Shown here in pieces: positions 5,505 through 26,413 of a stretch of 64,000 nt of DNA (positions within the stretch are counted from its first letter, which is position 1; each line of letters begins with the position of its first letter). The DNA is from an uncultured Alcaligenaceae bacterium (GTDB lineage Bacteria > Planctomycetota > Planctomycetia > Gemmatales > Gemmataceae), in NCBI GenBank assembly GCA_964515185.1, contig CAZESP010000005.1, positions 5,787-69,786 on the forward strand, given 5' to 3'. Below the pieces are notes generated by a model that saw only the letters and a program-made list of their open reading frames with translations, was not told where the DNA came from and ran no database searches. The translations under genes and the position numbers were made by a program.

Positions 5505-6611
5505 ATGCCCCATCTTATCCGATCGTCGAGCTTTTTGGCTCTCGCGGGGCTTTTCGCGTTGGCCACCGCGGTACACGCTCAGACCGGAGCGTTTGGGGCC
5601 GGCGGCGGAGGTGGCGGCGGAGGGTCGGGGTTTGGCGGAGGAGGATCGGGCTTCGGCGGCGGTGGGTCGGGAGCTACCGGCGGATCGGGTAGTGGCGGCA
5701 CGGGGTTTGCCGGTTCGCCGTTGACTGGCGACACGCCCCTGACTTCGGGCGGCAATCTCACGACTGGAAGCGGAAACAGCTCGCTCAATCAGACCAATCT
5801 CTTCCGAGGTTACTACTCCAACCCGATGTCAGCGGGCTTGGCGAGCATATCCAGTTCCGGCAATCGCGGCGGCACGAGTTCCGGCGGCGGCTTCGGACAA
5901 CCGACCTTCGGCACCAGCGCGGGAGGCACTTCCGGTGGCGGATTCGGCTTCGGCGGCGGAAGCAGCTTTGGAGGCGGAACGTCGCGAACGACGGGATTTG
6001 GCGGCACCAATACAGGAACTCGCACCGGGGGGATGACCGGCGGCGCGAGTTTCGGCGGCGGCCGGACGACCACCGGCGGCACTTTTGGCGGGGGCGGCGG
6101 CACCTTTGGCGGAGGAGGCGGCACTTTTGGCGGGGGCGGCGGCACCTTTGGCGGAGGAGGCGGCACCTTTGGCGGCGGGCGCACAGGTGGCGGTACGTTC
6201 GGTGGTGGCGGCGGCACGTTCGGCGGGGGTGGGTTTACGGGAACCGCATCGGTCACCGGAGGGCGTGGTACGGGTTTCGGCGGCGGCGGGGCGTTCGGCG
6301 GTGCCGGCGGCAGCAACAGTGGCGCTGCCGGGTCGCGAATGGCCATGGTGGCCTTGTCCGTCAAGTCGCCCGTCCCGAGGACGATCACCGCTCCTGAGCT
6401 TCAGGCCGATCTGCGCGGGATGATTGCCCAGTCGGATCGCTTGGTTTCACGCGACAAGATTCAGCTCAGTGTCAAGGGTCGCGATGTCGTCTTAACCGGC
6501 ATGGTTCGCGACGATGATGAGCGGCGACTCGTGGAGGCGATGCTGAGGCTGACGCCCGGCATTGGGCAGATTTCAAACAACCTTCAGGTCGAGCCGCCTC
6601 CCAAGCCGTGA
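5505..6611 (+). CDS. secreted glycine-rich repeat protein with C-terminal BON domain
   Basis: Signal peptide 'MPHLIRSSSFLALAGLFALATAVHAQ'. About 250 aa of GGGxFGGGG repeats. C-terminal 'LQADLRGMIAQSDRLVSRDKIQLSVKGRDVVLTGMVRDDDERRLVEAMLRLTPGIGQISNNLQV' matches the BON domain pattern. Confidence 0.7.
   Translation: MPHLIRSSSFLALAGLFALATAVHAQTGAFGAGGGGGGGGSGFGGGGSGFGGGGSGATGGSGSGGTGFAGSPLTGDTPLTSGGNLTTGSGNSSLNQTNLFRGYYSNPMSAGLASISSSGNRGGTSSGGGFGQPTFGTSAGGTSGGGFGFGGGSSFGGGTSRTTGFGGTNTGTRTGGMTGGASFGGGRTTTGGTFGGGGGTFGGGGGTFGGGGGTFGGGGGTFGGGRTGGGTFGGGGGTFGGGGFTGTASVTGGRGTGFGGGGAFGGAGGSNSGAAGSRMAMVALSVKSPVPRTITAPELQADLRGMIAQSDRLVSRDKIQLSVKGRDVVLTGMVRDDDERRLVEAMLRLTPGIGQISNNLQVEPPPKP
6070..6240. repeat. 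coding tandem repeat of a 15-nt period (GGTFG), including a perfect 45-nt tandem duplication at about 6076-6165
   Basis: 'ggcggcacttttggcgggggcggcggcacctttggcggaggaggc' occurs twice back to back. It lies within the glycine-rich protein gene. Confidence 0.8.
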
Positions 6612-7823: not shown

Positions 7824-8792
7824 ATGTCGTTCATTAATGATCTCATCAAATTGAAGCGAACCACGAAGAAAGCAAGCACCGCGATCAAGGGGTTTGCCTT
7901 CAACAACGCGCCGTTCAATCCGAACATTCATGTCAATGGGCATGACTATGACATCGTGAGTTATGCCAACGATTGCCTGGGGACATACACCGAGGAAAGC
8001 GGCAAGGAAGCGAAGATTACGGGCACGAAAACGATTGTGAAACCGACGGCCTATCTCCTGCCATGGAAGAGCGATCACATTTGCATTTGCACCATTGGCC
8101 AGGGACCGACCGTGTTTTTGACCTATCGCATGAATAGCTGCGCGGTGTTCATTTCCGGTGACGACCAAGGTCCAACAGTGGTTCACGCCAACACGGGCAA
8201 CATTGTCCCGACCTTGGACAAGAACAACTTGATCAATCAGTTCAGTACGATTTACAACGCCATGGCTCAGGAGTTGGTGAACCAGAACTTGATCGACGAC
8301 GACAATCTCACCATCTTTCAGCCGGGGGACTACGAAGGGTTCGGCGGCGTGTTTGGCATTTGCCGCGGCACGGCATGGAAGTTTTATGGCCATTCGCACA
8401 TCAATTCGACTCAGGCACGAACCTGGCAAATCTGGCCCGATGAAGCCGAGATTCCCAAGAGCGGTTGTTGCTATATCACGACGGCCGTTTGCAAAGGGAT
8501 GGGCCTTGCTGACGACTGCGACGAGCTTCAGACGCTGCGATGGTTCCGCGACGAAGTCATGAGCCGAACCGCTCAAGGCCGCGCTGAGGTCGCCGAGTAT
8601 TACAAGACCGCACCGGCGATCGTCGCCGCTCTCGCTGTCAACGCGGACGCCGGCAGAATCTACCGCGAGCTTTATTCACGTTTCATCCGCCCCGCAGTGA
8701 TGAGCATCAAACAAGGACGCCTGCGCGAGGCTCACGCTCAATACCGCGAAATGGTGCGCGCGTTGGCGGCATTCGTGGAGCGCGGTCACTAG
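7824..8792 (+). CDS. hypothetical protein with a conserved Cys-rich C-terminal module ('CCYITTAVCKGMGLADDCDELQTLRWFRDEVM...')
   Basis: GC is lower than in the flanking sequence. There is no signal peptide. The C-terminal 100 aa match a recurring C[FY]ITTA..C....DxCxEL..LRxFRD..L module that I recall at the C-termini of diverse bacterial proteins. The N-terminal 220 aa have no recognised family. Confidence 0.55.
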   Translation: MSFINDLIKLKRTTKKASTAIKGFAFNNAPFNPNIHVNGHDYDIVSYANDCLGTYTEESGKEAKITGTKTIVKPTAYLLPWKSDHICICTIGQGPTVFLTYRMNSCAVFISGDDQGPTVVHANTGNIVPTLDKNNLINQFSTIYNAMAQELVNQNLIDDDNLTIFQPGDYEGFGGVFGICRGTAWKFYGHSHINSTQARTWQIWPDEAEIPKSGCCYITTAVCKGMGLADDCDELQTLRWFRDEVMSRTAQGRAEVAEYYKTAPAIVAALAVNADAGRIYRELYSRFIRPAVMSIKQGRLREAHAQYREMVRALAAFVERGH

Positions 8793-8845: not shown

Positions 8846-9187
8846 TCACGTCTGCGGGCGGTTGACTCGCACGATTTGGCCGCGCAAGTCAGCGCAGGCG
8901 TCGATTGCTTGATGGATGCGCGACGCCTGACCGATGAAGTCAACGTCAACCGTGCAAACAATGATCCCAGCATGTTTGGGCTGTTGGCGATGCAATCGAA
9001 TAAAATCTTTTCAATTCAGCGTCAACACGGCACGATCTTCCGAAGTTGCTAGAGCAAGGACATCAGCGTCGGAGATCGCTTCATTGGCCTTACTGCGTTC
9101 GTGAATGGTCGTGACATCATGGCCGAGTCGCCGCAGTTCTTCGACAACGGGAAAGGGAAAATTCTCGTTGGAATAGAGGCGGGCCAC
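8846..9187 (-). pseudogene. DUF5615 (Mut7-C/PIN-like) toxin-antitoxin-partner gene interrupted by an in-frame TGA at about 9011-9013
   Basis: Hand translation from a GTG that overlaps the DUF433 stop gives 'MARLYSNENFPFPVVEELRRLGHDVTTIHERSKANEAISDADVLALATSEDRAVLTLN*KDFIRLHRQQPKHAGIIVCTVDVDF...'. Both halves match DUF5615 in one frame. No ORF of 60 aa or more is reported here, consistent with disruption. Confidence 0.55.
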
Positions 9188-9189
9188 AT

Positions 9190-9558
9190 CTACTCCTTTT
9201 CGTTCTCCATGATCGCTTTTTCGATCTCTTCATGATGGTCACGGGCATAGGCCCAAGCCTCAACGAGATCGATCGCGAGTAACGTCGGGAAACTGCGAAG
9301 AATGTCGATCTCCGACGCGCCCTGCTGCCGCATCCGCTCGAGAACCCACACCGGGATCCGCGTTCGAACCAACCTGGCCTCCCCACCGCAAACGCCAGGG
9401 GTGGTGACAATCGAGGGGTAGCCCGATCTTGCGCGCGAATCCGGCGAGATAGGTGCCGCTAGGACAGAACGCCAAATACCAACGGATGCGAAAAACCACG
9501 GTCTTTCGGCTTCAGACCCGACGACAAACTCGTGGAACGGACTTGCCGGATGTTCCAT
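9190..9558 (-). CDS. DUF433 domain protein (antitoxin-like partner of DUF5615)
   Basis: 'PSIVTTPGVCGGEARLVRTRIPVWVLERMRQQGASEIDILRSFPTLLAIDLVEAWAYA' fits the DUF433 consensus (CGG...R.TRIPV...L..G.S.EEIL..YP.L...D..AAL.YA). The exact start is uncertain and the ORF extends upstream to 9618. Confidence 0.65.
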   Translation of the reverse strand: MEHPASPFHEFVVGSEAERPWFFASVGIWRSVLAAPISPDSRARSGYPSIVTTPGVCGGEARLVRTRIPVWVLERMRQQGASEIDILRSFPTLLAIDLVEAWAYARDHHEEIEKAIMENEKE

Positions 9559-9797
9559 ATCACGTTCACCTCGCGCCCTGCCAACGATACTCTCCGATGG
9601 CTGGGAGAGTCGGCTCATTTTGCCGATCCGCCAACACTGGAGCTACCTATGACGGCACAGTACATTCTAACCAAAAATGGTTGTGAATTGCATTCGAGCC
9701 GCCGACAATGTTGGAGAGATCGCGTTTTCTCTGATTGGGTGAGCCATGTACTCGATGGCTCAGCCTTTTTCATGACTTGAGTCGGGAGAGACGAAGA

Positions 9798-10676
9798 ATG
9801 GCGATGTCGACGACAGATGTCAGCGATTTAGTGCTTGCCGCCTTGGAAACGGCGATCCGCCAAGGTGGCGAACATCGCCTGGTGACAAGCGGCAAGAAGA
9901 AAGGGCTGTTGCCGAGAGGTGCCCGATCGGCGGCGAACAAACTCGCCCAGGACCAATGTACCGATCCCAACTTGGCGTTGTTCACGGTTCGACAGGTCGT
10001 CGAGGGGAAAAGCAAAACCGCAAAACCCGTCGCGTTTGTTACAATCACGTCGCGCGGAATTGATGTTCTATTCGAGCGAAAGACGTCGACCGAACATCGC
10101 GAGTTGTTGGATCGGACAGCCGACGCCCACAAGGAGGCCGCCCAGGAAGCTGTACGACGACTGAGCGCAATCGAACTGAAACGGATCGACGAACAACGAC
10201 GGACACTCGACAGCCAGGCAAACGAACTGCAAGAGTTCATCGTAGATTTTGTCAAGCAACGTCTCGCGGAGCTGGAACGCCAACGACGTGAACTTGATGA
10301 ACAAGCAAAGCGCTTGACGCGATCAACGGCCGAGCCGCCGAAGCCTTCGACGGAACGACCGGGGCGTGTTCCAGTGCCAACGACCGACGAGGATCTCGAT
10401 TATCGGCGCGATGTGTGCCGCGAGCTTGTATTTGCATGGCAGGATAATCCCGCACCGGGAACCCGCGCCGCACTTGAGGTCGTCATGCTTAACGCCGGTT
10501 TGGATCAAGTTGGGCAACCTGGCAGTCAGGTGGTCTACACCGGGATTGAACACGAAACGACAGATGCTGTTGATGACGGTGATTTGGTAACAGTCGTGGA
10601 ACCCGGATGGAAACTTCGGTCGCCACGCGGCACATTACTCATTTCCCGAGCGAAAGTAGTTTCTGCCAAACCATGA
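9798..10676 (+). CDS. hypothetical protein with central coiled coil, 293 aa
   Basis: Start chosen at 'MAMSTTDV' with an upstream GGAGAG. Central 'ELKRIDEQRRTLDSQANELQEFIVDFVKQRLAELERQRRELDEQAKRL' is predicted coiled coil. It ends 10 nt before the next gene. Confidence 0.55.
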   Translation: MAMSTTDVSDLVLAALETAIRQGGEHRLVTSGKKKGLLPRGARSAANKLAQDQCTDPNLALFTVRQVVEGKSKTAKPVAFVTITSRGIDVLFERKTSTEHRELLDRTADAHKEAAQEAVRRLSAIELKRIDEQRRTLDSQANELQEFIVDFVKQRLAELERQRRELDEQAKRLTRSTAEPPKPSTERPGRVPVPTTDEDLDYRRDVCRELVFAWQDNPAPGTRAALEVVMLNAGLDQVGQPGSQVVYTGIEHETTDAVDDGDLVTVVEPGWKLRSPRGTLLISRAKVVSAKP

Positions 10677-10685
10677 GGATCAAAC

Positions 10686-12152
10686 ATGCGCCCAATGCTG
10701 TGTATCGATTTTGGCAATACATACACCAAAGTCGCGCTGCGCAAGACGGTTAACGATCGAAGCGAACTGTTAAAAGATGATTCTTTGGTATGGGACGAGT
10801 TCAATTTCTGTGTTCCCACTGTCGCAGCGAGATTCACAGAAAAAAGTAAGACTGTTTGGCGTTTCGGCGAGGAAATCCATCGTCTGAAAGGTAATGAACG
10901 CGATCTTAAAGTCTTCCGCAATTGGAAGCCGTTCTTTTTCGACGGCGACCATGCCAGCCTAGTCAATCAGGCTCTACCAGTCCTATCAGGGCAAGCCTCT
11001 GGCGCTGAAGAACCTCCTCCAGGCATCACACAAGTTGCGTGGAATGTAATGAAGAGTACGCTGCCAAAGGCAGATCTCGAGAAAATCGAGCAAAAGCTCA
11101 GGGGAAACGAACTGTCCGAGGGCCCGGCGGCAGGCATTCCCGATACGACCGATATGGATTACAAGGAATTAGCTCTTGGTTTCTTTCGTTGGTTGCACCA
11201 GTTCTTCGATCCAATTTGTCGTAAGCGCTTCAATCAATGTGTCCGCGACATACCGGTCAGGATTTCTCTGCCAAGTTTCGGATCCGTCGCGGGCGCCGAA
11301 TCACTCCTTGACGAACTCCTAAGTGAAACAGGTTGGAAACCAGATGAGACGATGCCAGTGATCGCAGAACCGCGGGCCAACGCAATCGGGATTTTCACGG
11401 AAGGCCAGAATCGAGTTAACAAGAAAGGGACTTCGCCTCTGTATCCCCCCATGTTTGGACAAACCGGCTTGTATGACAGAATGCGCAACGCTGTAGTGGC
11501 CAATGGTCCGCCGACCGCATGGGCACTTGTCGCGGACATTGGTGGCTATTCGACCGATTTCGCAATGATTGGCTTTGATTTGACCGAACTTGACGCTTCA
11601 CTTGACGGAGTGATAGATGGCCGCCCGCGGCTCGCTCATAATTCTTGGCCGCTTGGGATCACCGATCTTGATAGGATGGTCGGCGAACGGCTACGGGAAG
11701 AAAAGCGTCTTCGCCTCAATCGAATTATTGAAGACCATAATCAGCAGCGACTCGAAACGTTTCACAGTCGTCTTTATGGCGGCGAAGGGCGATTTGCCAC
11801 AAGAGAAGCGATTTTTGGTGATTCGGAACGCGAAAGAGCTGATATCGACATTGCGATACAAGACTTTGGAAAAACGGTTGCAGACCATGCCACACAATTC
11901 CTTGAGATCCATCAGTACGACCGAATCGACGACCTTATATTAACTGGTGGCGGAATGATGATTCCGGCTGTCCGCGAGGCTATTTGCCATCGATTGAAGT
12001 TGTTCGGAGTACGATTTGTGCATCTGTACAATCCCGCCGGAGCGAAATCCATTTCTTCAATTCGAACGCATGGCGTCGATCCGAAATTAACTCGGGGCGC
12101 CACAGCCATCGGTGGGGCAAGTGTCTTTTTCGACTTCGCCGAATCAACTTGA
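10686..12152 (+). CDS. actin/Hsp70-fold (ASKHA superfamily) ATPase of unknown function
   Basis: N-terminal 'LCIDFGNTYTKVAL' is a phosphate-1 motif. 'LVADIGGYSTDFAMIG' is phosphate-2-like. 'LILTGGGMMIPAVREAI' is an adenosine-motif-like segment. GC is visibly lower than in neighbouring genes. Confidence 0.6.
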   Translation: MRPMLCIDFGNTYTKVALRKTVNDRSELLKDDSLVWDEFNFCVPTVAARFTEKSKTVWRFGEEIHRLKGNERDLKVFRNWKPFFFDGDHASLVNQALPVLSGQASGAEEPPPGITQVAWNVMKSTLPKADLEKIEQKLRGNELSEGPAAGIPDTTDMDYKELALGFFRWLHQFFDPICRKRFNQCVRDIPVRISLPSFGSVAGAESLLDELLSETGWKPDETMPVIAEPRANAIGIFTEGQNRVNKKGTSPLYPPMFGQTGLYDRMRNAVVANGPPTAWALVADIGGYSTDFAMIGFDLTELDASLDGVIDGRPRLAHNSWPLGITDLDRMVGERLREEKRLRLNRIIEDHNQQRLETFHSRLYGGEGRFATREAIFGDSERERADIDIAIQDFGKTVADHATQFLEIHQYDRIDDLILTGGGMMIPAVREAICHRLKLFGVRFVHLYNPAGAKSISSIRTHGVDPKLTRGATAIGGASVFFDFAEST

Positions 12153-12163
12153 TTCAACTGTTC

Positions 12164-12182
12164 CCCAGGACGACGTCCTGGG
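12164..12182. terminator. inverted-repeat hairpin between convergent genes
   Basis: 'cccaggacgacgtcctggg' is a perfect 7-9 bp stem. It sits between the + gene ending at 12152 and the - gene ending at 12206. Confidence 0.45.
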
Positions 12183-12205
12183 CTGATCGAATGAGCCTTG
12201 CAGGC

Positions 12206-13798
12206 TCAAGAGAGCGGCGCATATGCCCCAATAATCGCCCTTGCCGTGCGTAGGCCATCGACGGCGGCGCTGATGATGCCGCCCGCGTAACCGGCGCCTT
12301 CGCCGACTGGGTAGAGGCCCGCTAGGCCGGGGGAGCTTCGACTCCGTTCATCGCGCACGATCCTCACCGGCGCGCTGCCGCGAGCCTCGGGGCCGGCCAA
12401 CACCGCCTCCGCCAAGAATCTCCCGCGCCAGCGGCGGTCCATTTGCGGCAGGCCGTGGCGCACGGCGCCGGCGACGAGCGGCGGTAACAACTGCGTCAAA
12501 TCGACACTGACCCCGCCGCGCGGATAGCTCGACTTCGGCACCCCCGGCGACACCCGGCCCTTCATGAAATCCGTCGCCCGTTGCAATGGGCAGCGATACT
12601 CACCATGACCCATAGCAAATGCCAAGGCCTCATACTTCTGTTGCAGCCGCACCCCCGCGAGTACGTCGCTTCCCTCAAACGCCTCGGCCGGCACCGTGAC
12701 GACCAACCCGCTGTTGGCGTAGTACGAGTCGCGGCGCGATAGGCTCATGCCGTTGGTGCAGAAATAGCCTTCCTCCGACACGCTCGGGATGATGTAACCG
12801 CCCGCGCACATGCAAAACGTGAAAAGATCGTTAGGCCCATGAGCCACAAGGGAATAGTCGGCGGCGCCGAGTTGATCCTCCAACGGCGTCGGCCCGTACT
12901 GCACACGGTTGACGGTCTCCTGTTGATGCTCGATGCGAACGCCGAATTGAAACGGCTTCTGCAGCATCGCCACGCCGCGACGAGCGAGCATCGCGTAGGT
13001 ATCGCGGGCACTGTGGCCGATGGCAAGAACGACGACGTTCGCGCGCATGTAGCCCGACGAAGTTTGCAACCCTCGCAGTTGGCCGTCGGCAATGTCGAGA
13101 TCCTCGACGCGGCATCGGAATCGCACTTTGCCGCCAAGGGACTCAACCTTCTGCCGGATCGCCTTGACCACGGCGGGTAGGCGGTTGCTGCCAAGGTGCG
13201 GGCGATATTCGTAACGGATCGACGGCTTGCCCTTGCATTCGGCAAACAGATCGAGGACTCGCCCCACATCCGGGCCGGACATTCGGCAGGTCAGCTTCCC
13301 GTCACTGAAGGTGCCGGCTCCGCCCTCGCCGAAGAGGTAGTTGCTCTCGGGATCAAATGTCCCGCCGTTGTCGAAGGCTCTGACATCGCGAATCCGGTCG
13401 CTGACCGCCGGCCCGCGTTCGAGCAACAGTGGCTTATAACCATGAAGAGCGAGGAAATATGCCGCCACCAACCCGCCTGGCCCGCTGCCGACGACAACCG
13501 GTCGATGCGGCATCGGCAGATTTCCCGTCGGCGGCATCTCGAACGGAGTTTCGACGAAACGCTCAACCTGGGCACGACCATGCCGATGACTCAAGAGCTT
13601 TTCTTCGTCGGCGACGGCGACCTCGGCGGCATAGACGAATCGAATCGCCCGCTTGTCGCGCATGTCGAGGCTTTTTCGCAGAATTCGCCAATGACGGATG
13701 TCGCCGGGAGCGAGGCGAAAAACCTTCGCCAAGTGCTCCGGCAGCGCTGTTTCGGGTTCGTCAAGACTCAAACGGAGATTAGAAACTCGAAGAGACAT
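12206..13798 (-). CDS. FAD-dependent oxidoreductase (COG2509-like uncharacterised FAD-dependent dehydrogenase)
   Basis: 'VVVGSGPGGLVAAYFLALHGYKPLLLERG' is a dinucleotide-binding motif. 'GGAGTFSDGKL' is also conserved. 530 aa. Confidence 0.75.
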   Translation of the reverse strand: MSLRVSNLRLSLDEPETALPEHLAKVFRLAPGDIRHWRILRKSLDMRDKRAIRFVYAAEVAVADEEKLLSHRHGRAQVERFVETPFEMPPTGNLPMPHRPVVVGSGPGGLVAAYFLALHGYKPLLLERGPAVSDRIRDVRAFDNGGTFDPESNYLFGEGGAGTFSDGKLTCRMSGPDVGRVLDLFAECKGKPSIRYEYRPHLGSNRLPAVVKAIRQKVESLGGKVRFRCRVEDLDIADGQLRGLQTSSGYMRANVVVLAIGHSARDTYAMLARRGVAMLQKPFQFGVRIEHQQETVNRVQYGPTPLEDQLGAADYSLVAHGPNDLFTFCMCAGGYIIPSVSEEGYFCTNGMSLSRRDSYYANSGLVVTVPAEAFEGSDVLAGVRLQQKYEALAFAMGHGEYRCPLQRATDFMKGRVSPGVPKSSYPRGGVSVDLTQLLPPLVAGAVRHGLPQMDRRWRGRFLAEAVLAGPEARGSAPVRIVRDERSRSSPGLAGLYPVGEGAGYAGGIISAAVDGLRTARAIIGAYAPLS

Positions 13799-23004: not shown

Positions 23005-23208
23005 ACAGCACCGGCAACGGATATCCGAAAAACCACGACGACTCCGCCCAGGCCATCGCCCCGAACACGGTGAGTCATTGTATTCCGTGATGGGAAAAAG
23101 CCGCAAGGCCGAGGCGCCCAGCGCGAGCCATTTGCATGGGGCGCCGCACAATAGGCTGCATGGCAGCGGATAGTTGACCGATACAAGCTCATTGTCGGGG
23201 GAAGACAG

Positions 23209-23631
23209 ATGACCCTATTGATCCGCGATTATTGCGCCCTGGATTACGAACCCGTCGTGGCCCTTTGGTGCGAGTGCTTCCCCGAGATCATCGAGGGCGA
23301 GACGGCTTTCCAAAAGATGTTGGCGCGAAAACTCGCGTTCCAGCCCCACCCGTTTCTGGTTGCCGTCACGGGCGACCGTGTCGTGGGCACGGCTGTGGGC
23401 GGCATGGACGGTATCTGCGCCTGGGTCTACCTCGTCGCGGTCCACCCCAGTGCGCGGCGGCAATCGGTCGGTTCGCAATTGGTTCGTGGCGTCGTCGATC
23501 GGCTTCGCGACATGGGTGCCGACAAGGTCGCTTTGCAATACTTCGAGGCGAGGCCGGAGCTGCGACAATTCTACGAGTCGCTCGGTTTCAAGGTGGAACC
23601 ACGAGTCACCATGGGACAACGAGTCGGGTAG
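23209..23631 (+). CDS. GNAT family N-acetyltransferase
   Basis: 'VGTAVGGMDGICAWVYLVAVHPSARRQSVGSQLVRGVVDRLRDMGADKV' is a GNAT motif A/B region. Confidence 0.75.
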   Translation: MTLLIRDYCALDYEPVVALWCECFPEIIEGETAFQKMLARKLAFQPHPFLVAVTGDRVVGTAVGGMDGICAWVYLVAVHPSARRQSVGSQLVRGVVDRLRDMGADKVALQYFEARPELRQFYESLGFKVEPRVTMGQRVG

Positions 23632-23789
23632 GAAACTATGTGTCTTGACTGCAAAGACATTCGCGAAGAAAATCACGAATACGAGAAAACAAATGGCGAC
23701 GATCGTATCGCAGACCTTAGCATGGTGAAGGTGGCGGTTTCATCGGCACCACTTCCTTACAATTGAGAATCCATTGAAAGGAGAAAACC

Positions 23790-24530
23790 GTGGCAAAGAA
23801 GGCTTTGATCGTTGTCGGCAGTTTCCGTTGGGAAAGTTCATATTATGTTGAGGCTGCCGCAGGGGTGGTTGCCCTCGGTGGAACGGCGATAGGCCATTAC
23901 GGTTGGCCGGCAGTCGTTGCACCATACTGTCCGGCAATCATTGCATTTGCTGGATTCACCGTCGTCATGAAACATATAGTTGACTACGGGTATGACTCGC
24001 ACGCGTCCAATGTAATGGAAAGTGAAATCAACTTCGCCGTGAGCCGTTTGTTCAACATCTATGGTTCCCGAAATGTCGACGTCCTTGTTGAACCCAAAAA
24101 GGAGAAGTTGTTGTATCCTGTGTTGAGAAAATCTGCCGCGGACCTTGAGACCGTGGTTTTTTTTGGTCACGGAGCTGAACTTGCAGCGGGAGTCGCCATC
24201 AACAAGACAGAAATGCTCGGTGCGGCCGACTTGAAACAGTTTTCGTTTCCGAGCATGACGTATTGCTATTTCTATTCATGCTATCAAGGCAATCATGAAG
24301 AAGCGTGGAAGTCAGCGTTCGGCGGGCAAGTAGAATCCGCCTACATTGGCGACGTCAAAGTGATGGGGTTTGACCAACCCAACATCGGCATCATTTTTGG
24401 TGGGTTTACGTGGGCCAAGGTTCCTTCGTCGCAGTGCGCTGAGTTCCATAAATTTCTTAACACAATAGCAGAGTCCAAGAAAGACACTCAAATGAGGAAT
24501 GAACGTATAGATCCCAGAGTTCCTCGATAG
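23790..24530 (+). CDS. hypothetical protein in an AT-rich islet; possible clan-CD (caspase-like) cysteine peptidase fold
   Basis: GTG start with AAGGAG 8 nt upstream. 'KKALIVVGSF', 'VVFFGHGAE' and 'CYFYSCYQG' give a His-Gly ... Cys spacing reminiscent of caspase/legumain-like enzymes. Composition differs markedly from the flanks. Confidence 0.5.
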   Translation: MAKKALIVVGSFRWESSYYVEAAAGVVALGGTAIGHYGWPAVVAPYCPAIIAFAGFTVVMKHIVDYGYDSHASNVMESEINFAVSRLFNIYGSRNVDVLVEPKKEKLLYPVLRKSAADLETVVFFGHGAELAAGVAINKTEMLGAADLKQFSFPSMTYCYFYSCYQGNHEEAWKSAFGGQVESAYIGDVKVMGFDQPNIGIIFGGFTWAKVPSSQCAEFHKFLNTIAESKKDTQMRNERIDPRVPR

Positions 24531-25417: not shown

Positions 25418-26413
25418 ATGTGCTGTCCTGGTCGCCGTGCGTTCACCTTGATCGAGTTACTGGTCGTGATCGCCATCGTGGCCATTCTGATTGGGCTACT
25501 TTTGCCGGCGATTCAGCGCGTGCGAGAATCAGCCAATCGGATGAAGTGCTCCAACAACCTCAAGCAGATCGCATTGGCGATCCACAGTCACGAAAACGCC
25601 TATTCGGTCTTGCCGTATTCCAAGCGTGATGTGCTTCCGCAACGGAGCTGGGCGCCGGATTTGTTGCCGTTTCTCGATCAATCGAACATGGTGGCGAGCG
25701 CCTATTTCAATCTGAACGAAAACTGGTGGCGCACCGTCGGCCAGGTCCCGCCCAATGTCGGGCTTCCGATTCCGAATGGGCTGACGGCGCGGCTGCCCCT
25801 TGCGGTTTTCAATTGCCCGAGTACGCCGTCGTCGCCCCGGATGCAAAGCAAGAAAGAGAATCCGCCCGAGCAGGACAAAATCGGTTCGTGCGGCGATTAT
25901 TTCGTGACCGAGGGGGTTCATCTTGCGATCAACAACGAGTTGGCACCGGCGGATCGGATTCCACCCGGTATTGATCTTCGCGGAGCCTTGCGCCGTCACT
26001 CCGAGGGTCCGAATACGTTTGCTCAGATCACCGATGGCACGTCCACCACGATCCTGCTTGCCGAATGCGCCGGTCGCGAGGATATTTGGCGTGGGCGTTC
26101 GATGACACCCGCGCAAACCAATACCGCATTGCCGAACGTGGCCCGTGCCCGTGGCGGAGCGTGGGCCACGAATGACAATCCCTACGAGATCGGACAACGC
26201 ATCCAGTGGCCATCGGGAATCATCCCCGGTAGCGTCCCGATGACGATGAACTCATCCAATGAATGGGGCTTTCTGTTTTACAGCTTTCATCCGGGCGGCA
26301 CGAATGCGGCCTTCTGTGACGGCTCAGTGCGATTCCTTCGTGAAGCGGTACCGCTGAAAACCATCGCGGCATTCGTCACCCGAGCCGGTGGCGAGGTCGT
26401 CAACGCCGATTAG
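25418..26413 (+). CDS. DUF1559 domain protein with prepilin-type N-terminal cleavage/methylation domain
   Basis: 'RAFTLIELLVVIAIVAILIGLLLPAIQRVRESANRMKCSNNLKQIALAIHSHEN' and the C-terminal 'HPGGTNAAFCDGSVRFL' H-X9-DG motif. Confidence 0.85.
   Translation: MCCPGRRAFTLIELLVVIAIVAILIGLLLPAIQRVRESANRMKCSNNLKQIALAIHSHENAYSVLPYSKRDVLPQRSWAPDLLPFLDQSNMVASAYFNLNENWWRTVGQVPPNVGLPIPNGLTARLPLAVFNCPSTPSSPRMQSKKENPPEQDKIGSCGDYFVTEGVHLAINNELAPADRIPPGIDLRGALRRHSEGPNTFAQITDGTSTTILLAECAGREDIWRGRSMTPAQTNTALPNVARARGGAWATNDNPYEIGQRIQWPSGIIPGSVPMTMNSSNEWGFLFYSFHPGGTNAAFCDGSVRFLREAVPLKTIAAFVTRAGGEVVNAD

Follow-up and report, generated by a model that had tools for sequence, protein, structure and literature searches.

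A conserved two-gene module that pairs a stand-alone Hsp70-type ATPase core with a winged-helix, GrpE-like partner

INTRODUCTION

Hsp70 with GrpE is among the best-understood molecular machines, in which nucleotide state controls a client-binding domain. Some Hsp70 relatives are degenerate or consist of the nucleotide-binding domain (NBD) only, including human HSPA13/STCH, E. coli YegD, and yeast Ssz1 of the RAC complex; none of them is known to have an adjacent gene for a dedicated GrpE-like, winged-helix partner.

GrpE itself acts as a dimer: it binds the NBD of Hsp70 and opens it, leading to release of ADP, after which ATP dissociates the complex (PMC10825016). HSP70, GrpE, and NBD-only HSP70 modules have been described in conflict systems centred on GAP1-N2 GTPases (Kaur et al. 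2020, PMC7159879), while the CnuD components of CoCoNuT systems are Hsp70-like proteins (Bell et al. 2024, PMC11090510). Here we analyse a gene pair in a 64,000-nucleotide stretch of DNA (the window), which represents a widely conserved bacterial family that keeps the ATPase core and a GrpE-type partner, drops the client-binding domain, and adds a winged helix of DNA-binding type.

RESULTS

Organization of the gene pair

Two co-oriented ORFs, encoding a 292-aa protein (the partner) and a 488-aa ATPase, lie on the + strand of the window (Table 1). A preliminary description of this DNA had placed a 293-aa protein 10 nt upstream of the ATPase; the pair itself stands, with the ATPase at its reported length and containing 'CIDFGNTYTKVAL' and 'ILTGGGMMIP', but the partner counts 292 aa from its ATG and 9 nt separate the two genes. 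Translation of the partner gene probably starts at the ATG at 9798, because NCBI, JGI, and Logan all call an identical 292-aa product and because homologues align from that methionine. An alternative, longer frame initiated at TTG would cross the upstream hairpin and its T-run. The two genes are translationally coupled and form one operon, with the ATPase Shine-Dalgarno sequence overlapping the stop codon of the partner gene.

The hairpin 5′ of the partner gene is a candidate operator or attenuator. At one other locus (L001) a palindrome of different sequence occurs at a similar offset, while no upstream motif is common to the 64 loci compared and no shared upstream palindrome is found (mean arm 5.9, versus 5.15 ± 0.9 in shuffles). 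The perfect stem downstream of the ATPase gene lacks a T-run and was not called as a terminator.

Table 1. Features of the gene pair, in window coordinates
Feature	Position	Strand	Basis or remark
Hairpin TGAGCCAT-N7-ATGGCTCA followed by a T-run, 36 nt 5′ of the partner ATG	9740..9762	+	
Partner gene (292 aa): winged helix, long helix, and GrpE-like C-terminal domain	9798..10676	+	ORF, databases, model
Winged-helix (wHTH) domain, partner aa 1-106	9798..10115	+	
Single highly charged 68-residue helix, partner aa 109-176, putative dimerising stalk	10122..10325	+	Model secondary structure
GrpE-like domain, partner aa 197-289: two helices and a six-stranded beta-domain, conserved family core	10386..10664	+	
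Shine-Dalgarno sequence GAGGA, overlapping the partner TGA stop, 7 nt before the ATPase ATG	10675..10679	+	Sequence read directly
Stand-alone Hsp70-type NBD ATPase (488 aa), without substrate-binding domain	10686..12152	+	
Phosphate-1 motif IDFGNTYTK; D8, G10, K15 invariant	10704..10730	+	Aligns to DnaK IDLGTTNSC
Phosphate-2 motif DIGGYSTD; D284, G286, D291 invariant	11535..11558	+	Aligns to DnaK D194-LGGGTFD-201
Adenosine motif LTGGGMMIPAVR; G423 invariant, T420, G421, G422 nearly invariant	11940..11975	+	Aligns to DnaK LVGGQTRMPMVQ
Perfect 9-bp stem directly 3′ of the ATPase stop	12164..12182	+	Possible operon-end structure

The ATPase is a stand-alone Hsp70-type nucleotide-binding domain

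Neither protein has a significant match in Pfam, NCBIfam, PADLOC, or PHROGs. Homologues of the ATPase make up 94 clusters, almost none of which is named; they derive from Gemmataceae and other Planctomycetota, Verrucomicrobiota, Myxococcota, and metagenomes. Across an alignment of 57 sequences, the residues D8, G10, and K15, K81, E228-P229, D284, G286, and D291, and G423 are invariant.

The AlphaFold model of the ATPase (pLDDT 89.8, pTM 0.84) has an actin-like NBD, and a Foldseek comparison of this model with 350,542 chains returns Hsp70 NBDs as all of the top 50 matches (E from 2.6e-13), in agreement with the ASKHA fold assigned in the preliminary description. Hsp70 NBDs are also the first matches of the family HMM among PDB sequences (E = 2e-4), with the first actin-like chain at E = 0.07, and hhalign matches the family to the NBD of E. 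coli DnaK at a probability of 84% (E = 7.5e-6). Under relaxed settings this alignment spans the whole DnaK NBD, placing D8 on D8, E228/P229 on E171/P172, D284/G286/T289/D291 on D194/G196/T199/D201, and TGGGMMIPAV on VGGQTRMPMV. The Hsp70 catalytic set (D8, K70, E171, D194, and T199 of DnaK, with the adenosine motif GGxxR[IM]P) is present in the ATPase. The single ATPase sequence, searched against PDB sequences, returned only spurious phycobiliprotein matches.

The ATPase terminates at the C-terminal helix of the NBD (aa 466-483 of 488), and it therefore has no C-terminal substrate-binding domain, whether beta-sandwich, helical lid, or hydrophobic linker. Its extra length is accounted for by family-specific inserts inside the NBD, at aa ~86-160 (partly disordered) and 238-275. 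The window ATPase has no match to PF00012 and stays below its curated threshold, and the best E-value among the 57 homologues is 0.022. A finding that runs counter to the Hsp70 assignment is that, when the 57 members are searched singly against Pfam, faint matches fall more often on actin-like models (MreB-like_C 33, PilM_2 31, Salactin 17, ParM_N 12) than on HSP70 (10); these span only the generic lobe II core, and a single member exceeds a curated threshold. Sequence alone thus does not tell an Hsp70-like from an actin-like ATPase here; structure, family profile, and partner identity do, and they place the ATPase on the Hsp70 side. The closest relatives are neither metabolic ASKHA kinases and activases (sugar and acetate kinases; BcrAD/HgdC-type activators) nor ParM, Alp, or other actin-like filament formers.

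The partner joins a winged helix to a remote GrpE homologue

The model of the partner (pLDDT 85.4) has a pTM of 0.46, so the arrangement of its domains relative to one another is uncertain. In it the N-terminal winged helix is followed by one long helix, a disordered linker (aa 179-190), a helix pair (aa 197-232), and a beta-domain (aa 235-289). The winged helix resembles TubR, and the N-terminus of a Myxococcales orthologue matches Pfam MarR_2 (E = 3.6e-6). Of the residues in the long helix 44% are charged, and the verrucomicrobial partners do not conserve this helix. The earlier label of a coiled-coil protein is only partly borne out, as it covers just this one 68-residue charged helix in the middle third; the helix fails the single-register heptad test, being not above shuffles (its score was reached by 1711/2000), and the label missed two globular domains.

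The conserved core of the partner alignment is formed by the C-terminal ~100 residues, including W214, D216, L226, M230, G234-L235, H252, G261, and P269-G270-W271. The order of elements, with a long N-terminal helix, a helix pair of the kind that forms a four-helix bundle, and a six-stranded beta-domain, is that of the GrpE fold. Comparison of the partner domain profile with a GrpE profile built from 13 sequences of diverse annotated grpE genes gives a probability of 94.3% (E = 1e-7, score 50.4, 62 columns). Specifically, partner residues 222-289 align with residues 125-191 of E. coli GrpE, which comprise the last bundle helix and the whole beta-domain to its terminal strand, and a 64-sequence partner profile recovers the same register (E = 4e-5). 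In the controls (the GrpE profile reversed; 30 GrpE and 30 query profiles with shuffled columns; the profile of the unrelated ATPase), every probability is at most 0.3% and every score about 15 or less.

Less sensitive comparisons remain below detection. The partner does not reach Pfam GrpE (PF01025), and hhalign against the single E. coli GrpE sequence gives probabilities of 2% with the full-length partner alignment and 38% with the domain only. Against PDB sequences the domain-only profile is not significant (GrpE at E = 0.93), and the full-length profile was set aside, since coiled-coil noise dominates its matches and GrpE (3a6m) appears only at E = 1.6. Because the profile-profile match to GrpE is accompanied by clean controls, we class the partner as a remote homologue of GrpE that has gained a winged helix, and not as a Pfam-level member of the GrpE family.

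The two genes are linked across phyla

Species-representative genomes were scanned, yielding 80 loci, 79 of them with enough upstream sequence to be informative. According to HMMs of both families, a partner homologue lies upstream of the ATPase in 68 of these 79 loci and is directly adjacent in 66, which is pairing far beyond chance and bears out the co-occurrence that the preliminary description had proposed to look for. Paired loci occur in Planctomycetota, Verrucomicrobiota, and Myxococcota; the 11 loci lacking the partner are nine from Gemmatimonadota (mostly Longimicrobium) together with L056 and L061. In the six contexts with annotation, a partner-sized gene sits directly 5′ of the ATPase, with an overlap or a gap of no more than 25 nt, and the genes on either side of the two vary. 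Furthermore, the pairwise distances of the two proteins correlate (r = 0.73, Mantel p = 0.001, 61 pairs). Instead of a metabolic kinase or activase with an unconserved upstream gene, the outcome that the preliminary description had named as fatal to it, the locus thus has Hsp70 NBDs as its relatives and a conserved partner.

A conserved third gene was considered and rejected, the downstream proteins of 545 aa (Gemmataceae) and 525 aa (Verrucomicrobia, HlyD-like) being unrelated. Clustering of neighbours is noisy owing to shadow ORFs in high-GC DNA, and a synteny with hisD-hisC-hisB is still visible. The ATPase subfamily of the window (35-52% identity) has variable neighbours and is spread across phyla, with up to three copies in some genomes. 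A Gemmataceae subfamily (about 29% identity) is placed after hisD-hisC-hisB in about 20 species, and this fixed position indicates long vertical inheritance.

Base composition and surroundings of the window copy

The preliminary description had remarked on the low GC of the ATPase gene, and its GC of 0.506 (GC3 0.497) is indeed below the window mean of 0.597 ± 0.025. A value this low is reached by only 0.4% of segments of equal size, and no other 1.5 kb of the window is poorer in GC than this gene. The partner gene is intermediate (GC3 0.567), and neighbouring genes range from 0.64 to 0.73. The lower-GC stretch that holds the pair also contains a CFI-box-CTERM protein and a divergent DUF433/DUF5615 toxin-antitoxin pair, and the window copy looks horizontally acquired. 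No tRNA gene was found in window positions 1-30000, no direct repeats were found flanking the lower-GC islet, and no integrase is among the genes called around the pair.

The GrpE-like domain of the partner recurs in phage proteins

Word-indexed searches with the partner retrieved only 6-8 homologues, and an exhaustive profile search extended the family to 301 representatives; the latter also detected the GrpE-like domain in far larger proteins. Among these, P0181 is a lambda-family portal fusion, P0151 (with two tandem copies of the domain) and P0162 are InPase/DUF5661(/GNAT) polyvalent proteins, and P0201 is an ABC1-kinase-like protein. The first three are carried by phage-like contigs, and P0151 has matches to minor-head and DarB-like antirestriction families in its InPase part. 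The domains match the partner profile strongly (E = 1e-24 to 1e-32) with no match to Pfam GrpE, and we therefore assign them to the partner type. A tblastn search of INPHARED with a phage-type copy found nothing. Phages carry the domain without a linked ATPase, an arrangement compatible with mimicry or hijack of the host ATPase, or of DnaK.

DISCUSSION

A probable cut-down DnaK/GrpE switch

Our preferred reading, held with moderate confidence, is that the pair constitutes a self-contained nucleotide switch of Hsp70-core/GrpE type, a cut-down derivative of DnaK/GrpE in which the partner controls nucleotide exchange in the adjacent ATPase; the switch is possibly tethered to DNA. By homology and linkage, the partner would act on the adjacent NBD-only ATPase as GrpE acts on DnaK. 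Specifically, the GrpE-like domain would bind lobe II of the ATPase and govern ADP/ATP exchange. By analogy with GrpE and DnaK, the complex would depend on nucleotide state, being tight with the ADP-bound or empty ATPase and released by ATP. The long helix is the likely dimerising stalk, as in GrpE, while the winged helix may position the switch on DNA or another ligand, or read it out. The analysis establishes the folds, the homology, the conserved catalytic residues, the operon structure, and the co-occurrence and co-variation of the two proteins, and from these we predict physical binding, exchange activity, dimerisation, and DNA binding; operon coupling and co-variation lend indirect support to a partner homodimer that would bind one NBD and speed up ADP release. 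Since the ATPase carries no substrate-binding domain, the cycle would have to deliver an output other than client binding, either in the form of the complex itself or through the state of its winged helix and stalk, possibly on DNA.

Biological role and alternative readings

Two sets of observations hint in different directions as to the role. The window copy seems horizontally acquired and adjoins a toxin-antitoxin pair, and phage virion-type proteins have a partner-type domain, which together hint at phage-host conflict; the stable synteny of the sister clade after hisD-hisC-hisB in Gemmataceae hints at a housekeeping or regulatory role.

The conflict reading, to which we give rather low confidence, takes the pair as an anti-phage or conflict module, an Hsp70-core/GrpE-type sensor or switch directed against mobile elements that phages counter or hijack by means of an injected domain mimic. 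It draws on the low GC and toxin-antitoxin neighbours of the window copy, on the variable surroundings, cross-phylum spread, and multiple copies of its subfamily, on the presence of the domain in a portal fusion and in InPase/GNAT/DUF5661 polyvalent proteins while the ATPase is not phage-encoded, and on the NBD-only HSP70 with GrpE reported in other predicted conflict systems (PMC7159879). Several observations weigh against it. PADLOC-DB v2 has no match to the ATPase and gives only coiled-coil-type noise for the partner (mad3 E = 0.0025, LmuB 0.0067), the six annotated contexts have no consistent defence-island neighbourhood, and the pair has no linked effector such as a nuclease, pore, or NADase. 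Moreover, the large Gemmataceae clade keeps the same place after hisD-hisC-hisB from genus to genus, an unusual behaviour for defence genes, and the phage domains could equally recruit host DnaK. This reading concerns biological role and is compatible with the Hsp70/GrpE-type molecular mechanism. The remaining weight on role goes to a regulatory or housekeeping function.

In its boldest form, which we consider unlikely, the pair would be the founding example of an immune or surveillance switch derived from Hsp70/GrpE. The winged-helix-GrpE partner would restrain or cycle the NBD-only ATPase of the host, and phages of Planctomycetota and Verrucomicrobiota would inject portal-fused or polyvalent proteins bearing a mimic of the GrpE-like domain, to neutralise or hijack the ATPase; if true, this would be an arms race around a chaperone core of a kind not seen before. 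Equally, the his-linked paralogue of Gemmataceae may act as an Hsp70-core machine tethered to DNA, serving the cell biology of bacteria whose division does not use FtsZ.

An actin-like cytomotive system, in which the ATPase would polymerise and the upstream winged-helix protein would serve as a ParR, TubR, or AlfB-like adaptor coupling filaments to DNA, for example in chromosome or element segregation in bacteria without the usual cytoskeletal genes, is improbable in our view. The two-gene layout and the TubR-like winged helix fit it, and the faint lobe II matches are more often to actin-like than to HSP70 models. The searches argue against segregation of a mobile element, one of the options raised in the preliminary description: no relatives of the ATPase were found in PLSDB, in INPHARED (tblastn), or in IMG/VR contigs, and the region has no centromere-like, parC-type repeat array, the only repeats in 9100-10000 and 12100-12260 being short two-copy matches; a shared upstream palindrome is likewise lacking. 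The suggestion that the locus is neither a canonical ParMRC nor DnaK is upheld by these results and by the lack of a substrate-binding domain and of a PF00012 match. On the whole, the earlier interpretation is partly supported.

Finally, it is very improbable that the partner is an alternative, DNA-tethered GrpE for housekeeping DnaK with the adjacent NBD-only protein as a competitor, decoy, or unrelated regulator, since the homology to real GrpE and the working of the same domain in phage proteins without a linked ATPase are set against tight and wide gene linkage, translational coupling, correlated divergence, and a domain so far from canonical GrpE that Pfam does not detect it, a divergence suggestive of adaptation to another NBD.

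Significance

The pair would surprise a chaperone specialist, and the proposed interaction is directly testable. If confirmed, it would make the two proteins a simple system in which to study what an Hsp70 core does alone. About 100 clusters of ATPase sequences and about 300 of partner sequences, at present "hypothetical", would gain a function class. In addition, an unannotated domain of phage portal and polyvalent proteins would be accounted for, and a testable link would be opened from chaperone cores to phage-host conflict in little-studied phyla.

Comparison with known systems

Our literature search found no description of this Hsp70-core/GrpE-like gene pair, and the passages retrieved from a review of bacterial Hsp70 machines (PMC8215388) do not mention such pairs. 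We weighed CoCoNuT CnuD and the GAP1-N2 systems as possible families for the pair, and their architectures led us to reject both. The GAP1-N2 systems likewise link an Hsp70 core lacking the peptide-binding domain with GrpE in a non-housekeeping, predicted conflict context, but they occur in actinobacteria and firmicutes and combine GTPases with FNIII-DnaJ or TPR proteins, whereas the present pair comprises two genes with no GTPase and no J-domain and has its GrpE-like domain fused to a winged helix. CnuD resembles the ATPase in being a divergent Hsp70-like ATPase outside protein folding with coiled-coil partners; it is an NBD/SBD unit with HEAT repeats and degenerate ATPase motifs, tied to McrBC GTPases, in contrast to the intact catalytic motifs and the absence of SBD and McrBC here. 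Like ParMRC, AlfAB, and TubZRC, the pair is a two-gene operon that combines an ASKHA ATPase driven by nucleotide with a small adaptor of DNA-binding type. Unlike in ParMRC, the ATPase is not closest to ParM, Alp, or actin-like filament formers, an iterated-repeat centromere is absent next to the operon, and no copies were found on plasmids or phages.

The system that comes closest is DnaK-GrpE. Shared with it are the Hsp70 NBD fold and catalytic residues of the ATPase, the succession of elements in the partner and its homology to GrpE 125-191, and the adjacency of the two genes, which is frequent for grpE and dnaK as well. The pair differs from DnaK-GrpE in having no substrate-binding domain, interdomain allostery, or linked J-protein, in the additional N-terminal winged helix and the disordered linker that separates the long helix from the GrpE-like core, in the family-specific inserts of the ATPase, and in that neither protein reaches the Pfam HSP70 or GrpE thresholds. 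The pair is a conserved, previously undescribed two-gene module that is an offshoot of the DnaK/GrpE machine and not a ParMRC-like system.

Genomic surroundings of the module

The toxin-antitoxin pair that adjoins the module directly upstream, in divergent orientation, is composed of a 58-aa DUF5615 protein of the PIN-like toxin type and a 122-aa DUF433 protein. The lower-GC stretch of the module also holds the gene for the CFI-box-CTERM protein, which has no Pfam match. The partner ATG lies 36 nt downstream of the hairpin, and a different palindrome occurs at approximately the same offset in the compared locus L001.

Elsewhere in the window, a second low-GC patch (23100-24530, GC 0.48-0.52) contains a GNAT acetyltransferase gene and an ORF with no Pfam match. 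GC rises to 0.70 over the gene for a secreted-looking protein that consists mostly of GGGGTFGGGG-type repeats and carries a C-terminal BON domain. The window also encodes a DUF1559 protein, a member of a family that is greatly expanded in Planctomycetota. Taken with the Fimbriiglobus origin of the nearest ATPase homologues, this points to a planctomycete as the source of the window.

Coordinates of features in the window and in the compared contigs
Contig	Position	Strand	Feature	Details
Window	5505-6611	+	Glycine-rich repeat protein	368 aa
Window	7824-8792	+	CFI-box-CTERM domain protein	322 aa; NCBIfam NF041770, E = 5.7e-15
Window	9011-9558	-	DUF5615/DUF433 toxin-antitoxin pair	Genes called on L087 and L088 (identical contigs)
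Window	9740-9762		Hairpin	TGAGCCAT-N7-ATGGCTCA; perfect 8-bp arms, then TTTTT
Window	23209-23631		GNAT acetyltransferase	
Window	23790-24530		ORF	246 aa
Window	25418-26413	+	DUF1559 protein	N-terminal methylation motif
L004	1749-7419		Locus of the his-linked pair	
L091	1014-4442		Partner-type GrpE-like domain protein	Phage-like contig
L092	3822-6002		Partner-type GrpE-like domain protein	Phage-like contig
L106	3861-6878		Partner-type GrpE-like domain protein	Phage-like contig

Distribution of the pair and of the partner-type GrpE-like domain

A Gemmataceae clade of the pair, paralogous or orthologous to the window's pair at ~29% identity, occupies a fixed position after hisD-hisC-hisB (L003, L004 and ~20 other Gemmataceae loci). 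An unannotated gene of ~545 aa and a gene for a CCA-adding or poly(A) polymerase often follow downstream.

The partner-type GrpE-like domain, for which neither a Pfam nor a PHROG model exists, also occurs, in one or two copies per protein, in virion-type proteins of three phage-like contigs. These carriers are large: one is a portal fusion of the lambda family, the others are polyvalent proteins of the InPase/DUF5661/GNAT type. The metagenomic protein P0201 (1337 aa), in which the domain is C-terminal to an ABC1 or PI3/4-kinase-like domain, represents a further architecture.

Resemblances of the ATPase to known proteins

The closest homologues of the ATPase come from Fimbriiglobus MAGs. Faint matches to Pfam baeRF_family10, a bacterial release-factor-like family, were found in 14 of the 57 ATPase family members (best E = 0.0019), and fall in lobe II of the homologues (e.g. 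residues 287-455 of P0047).

Several of the best Foldseek matches of the ATPase model (gene 10686-12152) are crystal structures of Hsp70 NBDs with bound nucleotide-exchange factors or other NBD-binding proteins, namely BiP-MANF, Hsp70-BAG5, BiP-Sil1, mortalin-GrpEL1 and Hsc70-Hsp110. Such matches could have arisen by chance; alternatively, the predicted model may resemble an opened NBD.
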